From Eledone cirrhosa (lineage: Eukaryota), in the NCBI GenBank assembly GCA_964016885.1, contig OZ024743.1, positions 146,320,001 through 146,384,000 of the forward strand: a stretch of DNA of 64,000 nt. Direction: 5' to 3'. Of the stretch, positions 701 to 63,946 are shown in pieces. The stretch's first letter is position 1; the number at the start of each line of letters is the position of its first letter. A model generated the notes under the pieces. The model was given only the letters and a program-made list of their open reading frames with translations, made no database searches and had not been told where the DNA came from. The translations under genes and the position numbers were made by a program.

Positions 701-745
701 AAAGAGTTTTTACATTTCAGACACTAGTCCTTCATCAGAAGAAAT
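701..745 (-). ncRNA. Degenerate minimal type I hammerhead motif in a PLE-like pLTR fragment (~620-830)
   Basis: Minus strand reads CUGAUGA-A-GGAC(UAGU)GUCU-GAAA-UGUA; stem I pairing is weak. The 3' tail of the same family recurs at ~32135-32198. Confidence 0.5.
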
Positions 746-1009
746 AAAAGTTGAAATAGAAAGATAAAGAGTGAGAAGAGGAAGGAACAGAGAAATAATT
801 GAAAAAAATAGCATGTGTGTATTCAGTCAGCCATTTTACTTTGCTTGTTTTGAATTGTAAAATCCATGCATTAATGGAAGGGGATTACATACATGTAGGT
901 GTGTATATATGTAAACATTTCTATTTAAAACTAAATGAAGATATATCTTGTGATATTTCCATCTGCTTTTTAATGTTGGCATTTATTGGCTTGAGTCAGT
1001 TCTTATTTG

Positions 1010-1250
1010 TTAACCTTTTATCATAAAAAACAGCCGTGTCTGACCAGAATTCTATCCCCTCTTTCTATTCCAACCAGCCTTAACCGGCTGCTTATACCAA
1101 TGTTAAGGTATTGTTCTCAAAATAAATTATATCAAAATCTCATAGATTCGATATTATGTGAGATAATTATGTGAGGTAAAGCCTTTACTGTGAAAATATG
1201 ACAGTATATATTATAGTATATATATAGTAATGTAAATACTAAAGGGTTAA
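1010..1250. mobile_element. piggyBac-type MITE (other copies 2149-2724, 2869-4270, 19336-19913)
   Basis: Family TIR CCCTTTAGCATT...AATGCTAAAGGG (degenerate in this copy) bounded by TTAA at both ends; four homologous copies, three with nested insertions. Confidence 0.8.
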
Positions 1251-1270
1251 ATGACTATGACCCACTCATA

Positions 1271-1437
1271 TGAGGGTGGGCTGAAAAGTTCATAGGCTGA
1301 CTACGAAATTTTGTATGCATTAATTTAAACTCTTCTTATTAATAACTGCATTGTTTCTTTCCAGGGACTATGTTGAAAAATAAACCCCATTTGGTCATTC
1401 CATGGGAATCAGTCTATGAAATTTTCAGCCGACCTTG
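1271..1437. mobile_element. Mariner-derived MITE (opposite-orientation copy 19978-20175)
   Basis: TIR TGAGGGTGGGCTGAAAAGTTCATAG / CTATGAAATTTTCAGCCGACCTTG flanked by TA. Confidence 0.7.
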
Positions 1438-1714
1438 TATGATCCAACTTTTGGCATGGTTTGTATGGCTGGATGTTCTTAATTATCATCCTTTAATGTC
1501 TGTTTTCCCACCCAGCAATGGTTGTGACCTGATCCATCCCTGTGATCCCCACTTTCACTAGCACTTCCGAACTGCTATCCTCACCCTCACTGTACCCCCC
1601 CCCCACCCCAGTAGCACATCTTTGCTACTCTCTTCTTGTAAACCTGTAGATACTCTCACTAACACACCCTTGTAGCTACTCTTTCTACCCCTTAGTTATT
1701 TTTCCATCACTACA

Positions 1715-1970
1715 CTCTATATGCATATGGGATTTAATTTCTGGGGGAAAAAGTGCCAAGAAATCCCAGTGGAAGGAAGCTGCAGTAAAGGAAGACCAAG
1801 GATGACCTGTGCAAAGGTGTTTAGAGATGACCTCAAATTGCAGAAGTTCACTGAGGAGATGATGAAGGAACGTAATGAGTGGAGAGACGCTGTGCTGAAA
1901 AAGGCCTGTCCAACCCATGCAAGCATGGAAATGTGGATGTAAAATGATGAGGGTAATGATGATGATGATG
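1715..1970 (+). mobile_element. RTE LINE 3' end fragment
   Basis: KKCQEIPVEG..GRPRMT..DDLK..EWRDAV peptide followed by (GAT)n tail. Confidence 0.8.
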
Positions 1971-2347
1971 AATCCTGATTTGATGTTGTCAGAAAATAAT
2001 TTATTGTGAATTCTGTCTGTTTACATCAAAATTACGACACATATGTGCTATAAAAAGTTTGGCTGTTGTTTCTAGCGTTTTTTCAGACAGTAGAGTTATA
2101 TGATTTAGTGAAGACTCCTCCTTCAGTATTTGTTTCCTTGTACCTTTCTTAACCTTTTAGCATTTAAACCAGCTGTATCTGGCCAGAATTCTCTCACTTC
2201 TTTCTGTTCAAATTGGCCATAACTGGTCACTCATACTGATGTTAAGGTATTGTTCTCAAAATAAATAATATCAAAATCTCATAGATTCAATATTATGTGA
2301 GATAATTATGTGTGATAAAACCTTTATCACAAAAATAAAATAGTATT

Positions 2348-2689
2348 CATTTCATTTCATTTCATTTTACGTCCGCTTTTTCCCTGCTTGCAAGGGTGGG
2401 ACGGGAACTGATTTTGGCTTGATTTCTACAGCTGGATGCCCTTCCTAACACCAACCTCATTTACAGTGAGTGCTGGGTGCTTTTTTGCCATGGCACCTCC
2501 ACGACCACTTTGCAATGGAATGATAGGGACCCCAGTCCCTATCATCTCATTTCTACAGCTGAGTAAACTGGAGCAATGTGAAATAAAGTGTCTTGCTCAA
2601 GGAAACAACACATCACCCGGTCTGAGAATTGAACTCACAACCTTTCGATTGCAAGGCCAATGCTCTAACCACTAAGCCAAGTGCCTCCA
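2348..2689 (-). mobile_element. tRNA-derived SINE family A with RTE-derived 3' tail (copies 18798-19143 -, 19371-19718 +, 35981-36320 +, 63236-63573 -)
   Basis: Head GGAGGCACATGGCTTAGTGGTTAGAGC (A box) and GAGTTCAATTCTC (B box); tail ...GCAAGCAGGGAAAAGCGGACGTAAAATGA shared with the RTE end at 16966-17035. Confidence 0.9.
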
Positions 2690-61151: not shown

Positions 61152-61803
61152 TCTCCCACCCTCCTCCTCCTCTTCTTCTTCTTCTTCTTCTTCTTCTTCT
61201 TCTTCTTCTTCTTCTTCTTCTTCTTCTTCTTCTTCTTCTTCTTCTTCCTGAGAGGTTCATGGGGGGAAGAGTCCTCAAACACTCCTTCCAGCAGGTCCTG
61301 CCAGAAGCAAACTAATCCAGCTGGGTTCCCAAGCAAGACAGGTCAAGCTCATGGATGTTATCTAGTCATCTTGCCCGGGGTCTACCTCTGGGTCTCCTGT
61401 CGGTTGGTTTTGCCCATAAAATCAGTTCAGCAATTCTCTCCTGAAACATTCTAACCACATGCCCATAGTATCAGAGCTGTGATCTCTTAATTTAGAGAAG
61501 TAGTGACTCTCTGATCTCTGAGCTACACATTCTATCAAGTAACGTTACACCAAAGATCCTTCCGAGAAATCCCATTCTTGACTATAGGGAAGAGTTTGCA
61601 CATATATTGAATTGAAAATAGCCAGTTTAAGTAATTTAATCAAAGTTGCATTTGCACAAAAGCAACAGAAGTCGAATTATATATATATATATATATATAT
61701 ATATATATATATATATATACATACATATATATGTATATATATATATATATATATATATATGTATATATATATATATATATATATATATATATTTATTAAA
61801 ATA

Positions 61804-61879
61804 ACAGATTAAAATTTAAGCAAAGAATCGCTGCTTTCACCCTTAACGGGATCTTCTGAAACTAACAAAGTCAATCTGT
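61804..61879 (-). ncRNA. Second copy of the CAGAAGA hammerhead-like motif
   Basis: Reverse complement of 7509-7584 with one stem I substitution. Confidence 0.68.
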
Positions 61880-62367
61880 AAATGCAGTACTGGATATTTC
61901 AAAAAACGTTGCAACCGGAGGAAGACAGGAAGACGATACTTTGGTTCGTGGTAACGTTCGCTGGCAAAGAACGGGAAAAAACGAATATAATACGTCATTA
62001 ATAGGAGCGGTGAAAAACAATTACGTGCAAGAACAGAACCACGTTTATGGTATAAAAGAGGTCGTAGACTAATGTTCTCTAAGTGGTGCATAGAGACGTT
62101 CTCTGGCAATGAACGAAAAAACGAAGATAATAAGTCATATGTGGAGCGTGGAGAACAATAGCACGCAAAGACAAAACCACGTAAATGGTATAGCAGAAGT
62201 TGTAGACTAAAATTCTAACTAGGAGACCGAATGAATCTCCGCTACAGAGTTAAGAACAAAGTAATACTATATATATATATATATATATATATATAAAGAA
62301 AAAGAGATGAAATCGAAAATGCAACTGGAGTCTTATTTTAAAAAAAAATATATTTATTTATTTGGTT

Positions 62368-62405
62368 CCTTTACCGGTTTCGCAGTTCTTCTGCTTTTCA
62401 AAAGG
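62368..62405 (-). ncRNA. 38-nt minimal hammerhead with U3:A8 core in a ~400-bp TA-flanked element (62295-62690)
   Basis: CCUU-UUGAAAA-GCAG(AAGAA)CUGC-GAA-ACCGGU-A-AAGG. Confidence 0.8.
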
Positions 62406-62828
62406 TGAGTTGAGATGGAGGGTCTGTGGTTTTTCTCACATCTGGTTGGTCTCTGAATGTTACTTGTTTTATATGGAAAAAGTGGCTCGAAATGCCAGGT
62501 TTTTCGAGAAGTAATTTGATTGGTTTGTCAATAATTATAATAAATTTCGCGCCAGTTCGCGTTACAATAGTTCTTCAAATAAGAGGGAGGGGGGGGGGGG
62601 GTTGTCACAGGTTGTTTTTTCATATATGAGTGTTTGAATTTCTTTTTACTTGAAAAAAGGAGGCTCACGAAGGCTTTTTTTTGGTTGGTTATATATATAT
62701 ATATATACACATATATGTTCCACCACACCATGAACAGATTGGTCACATCACCAGTGAGGCTGATGCCATTGGCTGCCTCCTCTTCTTAGATGTATGTTTT
62801 ATTATTGAACTTAAACACATAGCCCCCT

Positions 62829-63110
62829 CGCTATGTTGATGATATCAATATTGTAGTAAAAATACCCCTACAAGAGAGTACCCATGGATCAGAACTAGAA
62901 GCTTGCACCATGGGGAGCATCCAGCAAATAGCTAACTCCATCTACCAGAGCATTAAAGTAACAGTAGACCACCCCACTAAACACCCCAATCGCAGACTGC
63001 CCATGTTAGACACAGAACTCTGGATGGAAACTAAGAATGATAAGGTCCAAATCCTCCATTCACATTATACCAAACCCATGGCCTCAAAGTATCTGATCCA
63101 CCAGAGTTCA
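62829..63110 (+). pseudogene. PLE reverse transcriptase fragment
   Basis: RYVDDINI...IANSIYQSIKVTVDHP..RLPMLDTELW..HYTKPMAS in one frame. Confidence 0.85.
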
Positions 63111-63907
63111 GATCTAGTTGTCAAAATGGCCGGAGCTCAGTCCTGACTCTTTTCCTATTATTACCCACTCTACTACCCTAAGTATTGAGTACTCTGGTGT
63201 GTTATGATTCATCTGTAGCCATATATGTATATATTATCATCATTCATCATTTCATTTTACGTCCACTTTTCCCTGCTTGCAAGGGTGGGACAGGAACTGA
63301 TTCTGGCTTGATTTCTACAGCTGGATGCCCTTCCTAACACCAACCTCATTTACAGTGAGTGCTGGGTGCTTTTTTGCCATGGCACCTCCACGAATGATAG
63401 TGGAATGATAGGGACCCCAGTCCCTATCACCTCATTTCTACAGCTGAGTAAACTGGAGCAATGTGAAATAAAGTGTCTTGCTCAAGGAAACAACACATCA
63501 CCCGATCTGAGAATTGAACTCACAACCTTTCGATTGCAAGCCCAATGCTCTAACCACTAAGCCATGTGCCTCCATATATATATATATATATATATATATA
63601 TATATATATATATATATATATATATATATATATATATATATATATATATATATATATATATATATATATACATACATACATACATACATATATATATATA
63701 TATATATATATATATATATATATATATATATATACACATACACACACACACTCACACACACGGGTGTGTATGATTGTGTATAGAAGATTATATTAATAAA
63801 AGGAATTCCAGCTTTGTCTTATTTACTCGTTTTATTTACAATCCTTTAAAATTATAATGATATTATAATGAAATAGTATGGTAGAATATTAAACGTTAAA
63901 TGTTAAT

Positions 63908-63946
63908 TGAACAAGTACTTTAATGCATTCGCAATCTTCAGGTTCA
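63908..63946 (-). ncRNA. Minimal hammerhead-like motif with G12U
   Basis: UGAAC-CUGAAGA-U UGC(GAAU)GCA U-UAA-AGUACU-U-GUUCA; a long hairpin 63948-64000 lies just upstream. Confidence 0.6.

Follow-up and report, generated by a model that had tools for sequence, protein, structure and literature searches.

The association of Penelope-like elements (PLEs) with hammerhead ribozymes (HHRs) is already known, including in octopus, as the excerpted text of PMC8557442 credits the Octopus bimaculoides element Hydra-1_Obim with an HHR. The role of PLE hammerheads is called open there and in the excerpted text of PMC7761336, 126,247 hammerheads have been reported for axolotl, and a 2026 repeat annotation of O. 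vulgaris gives 30 recently active Penelope families with no mention of ribozymes. Since the basic association has been published, the surprise is limited, and what was not found in the literature searched is the scale and the unusual cores described below.

We analysed 64,000 nt of the Eledone cirrhosa genome (contig OZ024743.1, positions 146,320,001 to 146,384,000; the window), for which a preliminary description had proposed about 18 hammerhead motifs from about 12 families. All 19 listed sites were found to be type I hammerheads or recognisable remnants, and they fall into 12 families (Table 1). A descriptor scan caught 14 of the sites at a score of ≥18, and the other five (8441, 13972, 41116, 46242 and 45753-45961) were established by sequence reading together with genomic homologues. 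At the level of sequence, the window motifs are thus confirmed as real type I hammerheads or their remains, and we consider it likely (probability about 0.85) that PLEs, together with short non-coding elements that parasitise them, account for these hammerheads in this octopod genome.

Table 1. Hammerhead-bearing elements and related features in the window
Feature	Position	Strand	Remarks
Decayed minimal HHR	707..743	-	Core intact, stems weakened
U4A Hydra-clade PLE end, 5′-truncated	7276..7591	+	HHR 7525-7575
Young Hydra-clade PLE, 5′-truncated	8244..12906	-	GIY-YIG C-terminus 12280-12906, microsatellite-rich 3′ UTR, HHR 8441-8594
Inverted partner of the young Hydra-clade PLE 3′ end	12905..14192	+	HHR 13972-14125 with G5U
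Non-coding ~520-bp retrozyme-like monomer	14931..15361	-	Intact minimal HHR 15080-15124
HHR, U16.1C, shortened stem II	20262..20326	-	Downstream copy of 465-bp tandem pair
Intact HHR, long stem II	20727..20813	-	Perfect stem III palindrome in one homologue (L070)
Neptune-type PLE end	22928..23156	-	Intact HHR 23070-23112, extra nucleotide after A9
Third Hydra-clade PLE end	30414..30561	+	Intact HHR 30455-30520
U3-A8 HHR, stem I damaged	41113..41157	+	First copy, 340-bp non-coding tandem
U3-A8 HHR, U16.1C	41456..41500	+	Second copy, 340-bp non-coding tandem
3′ half of HHR, hairpin stem III, inverted piece	45753..45805	-	From sequence reading and genomic homologues
5′ half, same HHR family as 45753..45805	45900..45961	+	Complete forms elsewhere in the genome
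Minimal remnant of the U4A Hydra family	46242..46308	+	A9U
Inverted pair of U4C Hydra-clade lineage ends	47206..48107	.	Intact HHRs 47332-47376 (-) and 48012-48056 (+)
Same superfamily as 30455	55488..55667	-	Intact HHR 55555-55616
U4A Hydra family, longer end	61797..62264	-	HHR 61813-61863
Neptune-type PLE end	62296..62689	-	Intact U3-A8 HHR 62368-62405
PLE RT fragment	62717..63143	+	70% identical to Octopus vulgaris protein P0119
Second Neptune-type lineage end	63762..63982	-	72% identity to L179; HHR 63908-63946 with G12U

Hammerheads at the ends of protein-coding PLEs

Four of the 12 families are pseudo-LTR ends of PLEs encoding RT and GIY-YIG, which were assigned to the Hydra clade by motifs (RWR, DKT, CxCX5C, CxxC, CxH and a C-terminal EN), with (TA)n insertion also seen. 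The 118 protein homologues found carried no family names, and Pfam returned no family for the GIY-YIG fragment, the PLE RT fragment or the 830-aa protein, whose identities come from motifs and homologues. The families had been described as unrelated; 12 can indeed be distinguished, but these four come from a single PLE clade, with proteins 42–55% identical to each other. Unit lengths of 6,672 bp and ~4,170 bp lie above the general <3 kb tendency given in PMC8557442, which is not a strict criterion.

The family with the 6.67-kb unit is very young and has an 830-aa ORF, and its EN peptide is present in at least 150 copies at 100% identity. Its HHR at 8441-8594 is intact; stem II is ~130 nt long and stem III is palindromic. 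The U4A family is represented by HHR 7525-7575, which has a U4A core, a U-U at the base of stem II, a hairpin stem III and a stem I extended to 7509-7583, and the EN-to-HHR distance was 945–956 bp in eight of the 11 rows that carry a U4A HHR downstream. An apparent stem II variant of this family in locus L002 reflects a join to the inverted tail of the element and was rejected as covariation. For the 55488..55667 end, a Hydra EN lies 1.9 kb upstream in one locus (L075).

Three further families (23068, 62368 and 63908) are ends of protein-coding Neptune-type PLEs, a name that is based on motifs and here takes in both Neptune and Nematis. Both the 62368 and the 63908 lineage have DKG, a CX2-5CxxC linker, a CCHH-type EN, an upstream ORF1 and an HHR in the pLTR, while the 23068 carrier has DKS instead of DKG and is ~25% identical to the other two. 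A P0119-like protein is located 440 bp upstream of the 23068 family in L025 and L038, and the EN-to-HHR distance is 439–440 bp (two loci). The 63908 HHR has an intact inverted partner ~30 bp past the end of the window (L059:1030-1068). The PLE RT and GIY-YIG fragments noted in the preliminary description (62717-63143 and 12280-12906) are both present, the RT fragment having no physical link to an HHR in the window, and the inverted and tandem partial copies noted there were likewise recovered (8244..12906 with 12905..14192, 47206..48107, and 41113..41500).

Non-coding tandem units

Two families (15080 and 41116/41456) consist of non-coding tandem retrozyme-like units. The HHR at 15080-15124, with a cut predicted 3′ of position 15087, belongs to a family of which an array contains 14 direct and one inverted monomer of 511–539 bp, with a longest ATG-ORF of 66 aa. 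A search with this monomer listed no RNA data set, and four contig sets showed neither ends nor informative joints for it, results that do not bear on its expression. The 41116/41456 family includes circularly permuted 330-bp copies and shares an 8-nt stem III palindrome with the young 6.67-kb PLE, and its members are probably non-coding retrozyme-type monomers. The remaining three families (701, 20262/20727 and 45753-45961) are tied to no carrier element, which counts against the PLE explanation; the 701 family has a 4-nt palindromic stem III and intact homologues in L002, L016 and L056.

The carriers had been described as mostly short non-coding elements, and an alternative along these lines, which we regard as rather unlikely, is that the motifs belong mainly to such elements, mobilised in trans by PLEs. 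This fits 15080 and probably 41116/41456, most HHR copies have no ORF within 1.5 kb, and in a 380-kb genome sample at least 14 of 48 matches came from tandem non-coding families (nine from 15080, five from a 311-bp family) versus 11 tied to coding PLEs, the others being unassigned. In the window, however, 7 of the 12 families were traced to elements encoding RT and GIY-YIG, and their short copies are 5′-truncated insertions. These seven include 62368 and 47327, for which a non-coding nature, read from 1.5-kb flanks, was ruled out by ties to coding PLEs.

Core variants, decay and conservation

The type I core (C3-A9, G12-A15.1 and U16.1-H17) and three helices with an open stem I are present, with the U3-A8, U4A and U4C families deviating at the named positions. 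As had been anticipated, a CUGANGA/GAAA search misses these three variants and the long stem II. Stem III was a perfect palindrome in 12 of 22 multi-copy clusters, a near-palindrome in four and a hairpin in six. The family core and stems are kept at 11 of the 19 sites (7525, 8441, 15080, 20727, 23070, 30455, 47332, 48012, 55555, 61813 and 62368), and the core is kept with damaged stems at two (701 and 41116). A core change absent from the site's own family was found at five (13972 G5U, 20262 U16.1C, 41456 U16.1C, 46242 A9U and 63908 G12U), and 45753-45961 consists of two inverted halves without a complete ribozyme, giving eight visibly damaged copies. Self-cleavage of the window motifs is predicted; on folding, z was < -2 in just 3 of 11 monomers, and several minimum-energy folds differ from the HHR fold.

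Aligning 27 sequences of the 30455/55551 superfamily shows core columns with little or no variation, a variable N7, and seven of nine stem II pairs in which both sides have changed (42 cells versus 16.4 in shuffles and ≤9 in slid controls). In the 15080 family, the common variants within the HHR were restricted to N7, loop II and a single pair of stem I, which covaries (13 sequences). Stem covariation, put forward earlier as a check, is thus seen in this superfamily and one 15080 pair, in sets that were picked by a scan requiring pairing and in which related rows are not independent. Conservation of the core relative to flanks, also proposed earlier as a check, gave a mixed picture when copies of eight families were picked by their flanks only. 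Core identity was higher in three families (23070, 0.98 versus 0.78, n = 11; 15080, 0.94 versus 0.88, n = 24; 20727, n = 2) and equal in three (48012, 0.91 versus 0.90, n = 35; 41456, 0.79 versus 0.81, n = 21; 55551, 0.82 versus 0.83, n = 5), and the sets for 30455 and 7525 were contaminated by AT-rich false homologues.

The U4A core, the lineage-wide U4C core and the 130-nt stem II were not found in the literature searched, although Lunse et al. (2017) may already report some core variants. It is conceivable, if unlikely, that the U4A/U4C fold acts as a structural or dimerisation signal for a PLE protein, or needs a protein in order to cut. Both cores occur in recently amplified lineages, with 14,941 identical copies (35-mers) of the U4A core in a genome-wide pattern search, and 7,168 pattern matches for the U4C lineage, of which the first 100 listed include 95 with C4. 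U4C also strongly lowers in vitro activity in a viroid, and Naiads proliferate without canonical HHRs. Nevertheless, the U4A and U4C lineages retain all other catalytic positions, stem III palindromes covary among the U4C subfamilies, the U4C viroid is still infectious, and a stable stem III and extended stem I could compensate in the U4A motif.

Enrichment and genome-wide load

At a score of ≥25 the window contained 11 matches, whereas 1391 block-wise dinucleotide shuffles averaged 0.45, with a maximum of 4, and at ≥20 it contained 13 versus 1.36; the match rate is not reproduced by shuffling, the comparison that had been proposed as a check. The reversed window gave no descriptor matches at ≥20, and reversed controls for four family patterns gave zero matches. 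Genome-wide, one core pattern gave 165,094 matches versus 10,033 for its reversed control (at least 155,000 net). The earlier view of minimal type I HHRs in a large PLE-linked radiation is upheld. A (TA)5+ run was present within 300 nt downstream of 16 of the 19 window sites versus 33% of random positions, in agreement with the (TA)n adjacency described before, and of 38 of the 48 genome-sample motifs versus 22%.

Some low-scoring scan matches, such as 1951-2018, were noise, and relaxing the descriptor to two core mismatches yielded AT-rich noise. A repeat search of the window was dominated by microsatellites. No hammerhead model was among the best 150 of 378 rows of an Rfam scan of the window, and the rows were dominated by miRNA-model matches to (TA)n. 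That a short motif recurs by chance in AT-rich repetitive DNA, with which the low-scoring noise and the Rfam result would agree, is a negligible explanation for the listed sites, being refuted by the shuffles, reversed controls and stem covariation.

Extrapolation from the 380-kb sample gives a genome load of ~3.5 × 10^5 motifs (2.2–5.2 × 10^5), an estimate that leaves out the long-stem-II family, as the descriptor scan has a stem II limit of 70 nt; BLAST found three complete copies of that family in the sample. The window had been considered especially dense, at one motif per 3.5 kb, and was itself weighed as an HHR hotspot, which was ruled out: at a score of ≥22 it has 12 matches in 64 kb versus 48 in the 380-kb sample (P ~0.18), inside the genome-wide range, and the genome average is ~1 recognisable motif per 8 kb. 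The load would be some 25 to 30 times the axolotl density, if the axolotl genome is 28 Gb. A scale above the axolotl count was not found in the literature searched, and Lunse et al. (2017) may already give some counts.

Proposed mechanism and implications

Intact units have the order HHR, ORF(s), 3′ UTR, HHR and short tail, lie head-to-tail or inverted, and adjoin (TA)n. Complete units were obtained for four lineages, with HHR-ORF-HHR lengths of 6,672 bp, 4.17–4.26 kb, and 4.2 and 4.9 kb. In most genomic copies 5′ truncation has left just the HHR and tail, and an inverted partner is often present. Non-coding monomers of 330–520 bp, each with one HHR, form tandem arrays. Under the PLE explanation, and following established PLE biology, GIY-YIG would nick (TA)n and RT would copy from the RNA 3′ end; the HHR would survive truncation and accumulate because it sits near the 3′ end, where copying starts. 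Published assays in other species suggest that tandem read-through transcripts may be cut at successive HHRs. By analogy, a palindromic stem III would pair between two copies, whereas families with a hairpin stem III could cut as monomers, and the released unit-length RNA may be circularised and then reverse-transcribed into multimers. Selection would act on source elements alone, which would explain fixed cores and stem covariation from lineage to lineage alongside the decay of inserted copies. The weak cleavage of published minimal PLE HHRs, even as dimers, and the cleavage of only one of nine predicted dimers of Xenopus retrozymes count against the PLE explanation.

A more far-reaching reading, which we put forward as doubtful, is that this genome combines the largest hammerhead load yet counted, young PLE lineages on U4A/U4C cores, and a partner code in the stem III palindrome, the last suggested because stem III pairs between two RNAs. 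If such a code exists, non-coding monomers sharing a palindrome with a coding PLE, as 41116/41456 does with the young 6.67-kb element, could form mixed dimers that trigger cleavage, the parasite could be handed to the reverse transcriptase of that PLE, and cutting in trans could extend to dispersed copies in introns.

The genome provides a matched natural set in which several young coding families occur beside non-coding tandems. Canonical, U3-A8, U4A and U4C cores are all represented, stem III may be palindromic or a hairpin, and full-length units are available intact, so that cleavage rate, dimer specificity and partner choice can be directly compared. The count implies that whole families escape canonical descriptors and that a load of one hammerhead relic for every 8 kb is possible in an animal, which makes selection against sense-strand intronic copies testable.

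Comparison with known systems

The metazoan non-LTR retrozymes, as covered by the excerpted text of Cervera and de la Peña (2020, PMC7229834) and of the preprint of Li, Clavereau and Pollet (2026, 10.64898/2026.07.22.740005), likewise consist of tandem non-coding monomers, a few hundred bases long, with one type I HHR each and co-occurring PLEs; no cephalopod was found in these accounts. Unlike in those retrozymes, the HHRs of the monomers described here are of the minimal PLE type, and a (TA)n lies within the 520-bp unit itself; the monomers are known from DNA alone.

As far as the excerpts of Craig et al. (2021, PMC8557442) go, Hydra-clade PLEs share the C-terminal GIY-YIG, RW[KR], DKT, CxCX5C, CxxC and CxH, (TA)n insertion and an HHR near the 3′ end, and the Neptune-type features DKG, CX2-5CxxC and CCHH-type EN are matched by the 62368 and 63908 lineages. 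The Hydra elements in those excerpts are ~3 kb or less and all their HHRs have CUGANGA, whereas we found U4A/U4C cores, 4.2- and 6.67-kb units, at least four Hydra families, a 3.9-kb 3′ UTR that is 40% dinucleotide repeat, and very recent amplification.

The minimal HHRs of PLE pseudo-LTRs, in the portions of Cervera and de la Peña (2014, PMC4209133) drawn on here, are also type I with a short palindromic stem III, include the U3-A8 variant and, in some families, an extra nucleotide after A9, and occur as many families per genome, mostly as solo truncated copies and opposite-strand pairs. The same portions give G10.1-C11.1 where many families here have U-U or C-A, and neither U4A, U4C nor the 130-nt stem II, all present here, was found in them. 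They count ~2,000 motifs in S. mansoni, ~4,000 in coelacanth and ~9,000 in X. tropicalis, versus the net genome-wide count given above for E. cirrhosa.

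Hammerhead sites in the window

All 19 sites in the window that the preliminary description listed as type I hammerhead ribozymes proved to be hammerheads or their remains. Fourteen were found by a structural scan that required three helices and tolerated no more than one core change, with U3-A8 taken as standard, and the other five are real, yet outside the scan descriptor. Stem II of the hammerheads at 8441–8594 and 13972–14125 is about 130 nt long and thus beyond the descriptor (z = −4.9 for the fold of the 8441 copy), stem I is broken at 41116, the 46242 copy carries A9U on top of its family's U4A, and 45753–45961 is a hammerhead in two inverted halves, with the family complete elsewhere in the genome. 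Family core and stems were kept in 11 of the 19 copies, with damaged stems in two, private core changes in five and one copy split. The window is (TA)n-rich with 34% G+C, and (TA)5 or longer tracts were present within 300 nt downstream of 16/19 sites, compared to 33% of random positions. Hammerheads were absent from the best 150 of 378 matches in an Rfam scan of the window, and the top spurious miRNA matches of that scan come from a SINE-like hairpin (see table).

Coding and non-coding carriers

The preliminary description placed most motifs in short non-coding elements, which held for the 15080 and 41116/41456 families (named by window position), whereas seven families were traced to coding Penelope-like elements (PLEs) by unit structure or by spacing to the GIY-YIG endonuclease (EN). 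Among 64,617 candidates, no fewer than 150 copies are identical to the EN piece at 12280; many of these lie within 830-aa frames with the Hydra-clade features RWR, DKT, YRDD, CxCX5C, CxxC and CxH. The unit of this young PLE is 6,672 bp long (hammerhead, 350 bp, ORF, 3.9-kb UTR, hammerhead), with 40% of the UTR being dinucleotide repeat. Three further Hydra families (protein identity 42–55%) carry other window motifs. The 7509/46242/61804 motif lies 945–956 bp after a Hydra EN in 8 of 11 rows, and the 30455/55551 motif 1.2–1.9 kb after one, with 55551 from one locus. Full hammerhead-ORF-hammerhead units of 4.17 and 4.26 kb were found in sister subfamilies of the 47327/48008 lineage, and the window subfamily has EN remnants 550 and 1,276 bp upstream (2 loci). 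The 62368 and 63908 motifs have 6,229 and 5,365 exact genome matches, respectively (control 0 for both), and flank 4.2–4.9-kb Neptune-type units with ORF1, DKG and CX2-5CxxC, the ORF being missing in one of the six stretches examined; the window's 63908 copy is from a sister subfamily of this lineage (72%). In 2 loci, an EN like that of Octopus vulgaris protein P0119 precedes the 23068 motif by 440 bp. Carrier tracing gave no PLE or monomer class for 701, 20262/20727 and 45753.

The 15080 element is a non-coding monomer of 511–539 bp with internal (TA)n and 99% identity between loci, and its arrays reach 14 direct copies and one inverted; 41116/41456 is a circularly permuted tandem monomer of 330–340 bp. 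The 15080 family, subfamily variants included, also occurs in a second sample's contigs and in those of organism C, and is thus not private to the present assembly. A mostly non-coding radiation, a rival reading, is true for a minority of the window families and perhaps for a large share genome-wide. Among 48 matches in a genome sample, at least 14 were in tandem non-coding families and 11 in coding PLEs.

Further features of the window and of other loci of the genome (L-numbers)
Feature	Position	Remarks
Young Hydra PLE copy	8244–14192	One truncated insertion plus inverted partner, (TA)n on flanks
3′ UTR of young Hydra PLE	L073:3281–7161; window 9137–12280	3.9 kb, 40% TA/CA-type repeat
PLE RT fragment	62823–63143	70% identical to the O. 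vulgaris protein, which points to an octopod as the probable host
PLE fragment, P0119-like	59011–59208	Decayed, GIY-YIG side; no hammerhead detected downstream
311-bp tandem family	L037:8596–9717; L175:1353–5788	Identical minimal hammerheads, head-to-head arrays; absent from window
520–570-bp tandem units	L167:5631–6283; L031:6459–7060	Long stem II hammerheads, 10-nt stem III palindrome
RTE/CR1-type non-LTR fragments (APE, RT, PHD)	15600–16880, 42296–45176, 6340–7072, 17200–17820, 23590–24400, 29300–30115	Not PLEs; intact 1,040-aa copy at L174:4287–7406
L1/Tx1-like retrotransposon fragments	33964–35902, 50023–50499	Longer ORFs of this type in L160, L164
tRNA-derived SINE heads	63456–63573; copies at 2571, 19025, 19416, 36020	63507–63564: Rfam tRNA, 31 bits; SINE 320 bp, several copies 94–97% identical
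Inverted array of SINE-like units	51550–53600	Units of about 200–230 bp
Near-perfect hairpin, 218 nt	24411–24628	Inverted SINE-like ends around (TA)n
Pentanucleotide-based satellite	27381–28458	1.1 kb
(CAT)n tract	48578–49388	0.8 kb
Broken ORFs	58048–59072	Tc1/mariner transposase-like by eye; no Pfam match

Conservation of the fold and core variants

The 30455/55551 superfamily was represented by 27 distinct sequences, in which the core varies only at N7 and by one A9 change; both sides vary in 7/9 stem II pairs (42 cells, against 16.4 when shuffled and at most 9 when slid). One stem I pair of the 15080 family is GU, UG, AU or CG, and the family's common contig variants are at N7, loop II and this covarying pair. 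Both sequence sets were chosen by a pairing-aware scan and their members are related by descent. Stem III in the 22 multi-copy clusters comprised 12 perfect palindromes, 4 near-palindromes and 6 hairpins, and only 3/11 monomers folded at z < −2. The anticipated excess of core over flank conservation was only partly borne out: in copies picked by flanks only, the core was more conserved in 3/8 families, three others showed no difference and two could not be read, a mixed result that is expected if inserted copies decay neutrally and is not independent support.

U3-A8, a U-U base of stem II and an extra nucleotide after A9 are described in the available text of published work as hammerhead variants; for U4C, that text gives a single viroid, whose in vitro activity is low. 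Here, U4C is fixed in a lineage of 7,168 matches in which stem III palindromes covary (C in 95 and T in 5 of the first 100 listed, the latter consistent with CpG decay). U4A is present in 14,941 identical 35-mers genome-wide and in 43/43 clustered copies, a cluster which let U4A matches in at a lower score; as a natural variant it was not found in a literature search that did not extend to Lunse et al. 2017. A rival reading is that these U4 variants have a structural, not a catalytic, role.

Genome-wide abundance

The window held 11 matches at a score of ≥25, compared to 0.45 (maximum 4) in 1391 local dinucleotide shuffles, and 13 at ≥20 compared to 1.36. Chance is excluded as a rival reading of the listed sites. 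In 38 evenly spaced 10-kb stretches (380 kb) of the 3.0-Gb assembly, 48 matches scored ≥22, compared to 2.1 in 93 shuffles, giving an estimated 3.6 × 10^5 motifs in the genome (bootstrap 2.2–5.2 × 10^5). A core pattern (core, 10 to 36 nt, GAAA, YNNR, TH) matched 165,094 times genome-wide, compared to 10,033 when read backwards, with 23 matches within the sample where 20.9 were expected; since 21/48 sample matches fit this pattern, it scales to 3.4 × 10^5. The window is no denser than the genome (P about 0.18). Clustering of 350 matches from 969 kb, with six window-overlapping loci removed, gave 39 clusters, of which 22 were multi-copy, 21 were present in the 380-kb sample and a few singletons are noise; cluster sizes are not abundances, since many loci were picked by family. 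The hammerhead population is real and genome-wide.

Proposed mechanism

Unit architecture, the pattern of truncation and inversion, (TA)n adjacency, tandem monomers and recent amplification were all observed. In PLEs, the endonuclease nicks the target, followed by 3′-primed reverse transcription and 5′ truncation. The same steps would operate here, and the hammerhead end would accumulate because of 3′ priming and 5′ truncation. The hammerheads may cut tandem transcripts to unit RNAs, mostly as dimers, and the non-coding monomers may borrow the RT of a PLE. The elements' own TA/CA repeats (Hydra 3′ UTR, (TA)n of the 520-bp monomer) suggest that they spread the microsatellite which is their own target.

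Comparison with published systems

The association of hammerheads with PLEs and retrozymes is already published, as seen from the available text of PMC4209133, PMC7229834 and a preprint by Li, Clavereau and Pollet 2026. Among the papers listed in literature searches, hammerheads came together with octopus, squid or cephalopods in general only in Craig et al. (PMC8557442), the available part of which lists a Hydra element with a hammerhead for O. bimaculoides, and in one unrelated LTR paper; the available text of the O. vulgaris repeat paper never mentions ribozyme, hammerhead or Hydra. Counts in the available published text are 2,000–9,000 for minimal hammerheads, compared to about 3.6 × 10^5 by sample in the present genome, and the largest count found, 126,247 in axolotl, compares with our 165,094 core-pattern matches. 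The PLE-hammerhead association is thus known, and what stands out here is its scale and diversity, the live full-length carriers and the lineage-fixed non-standard cores.
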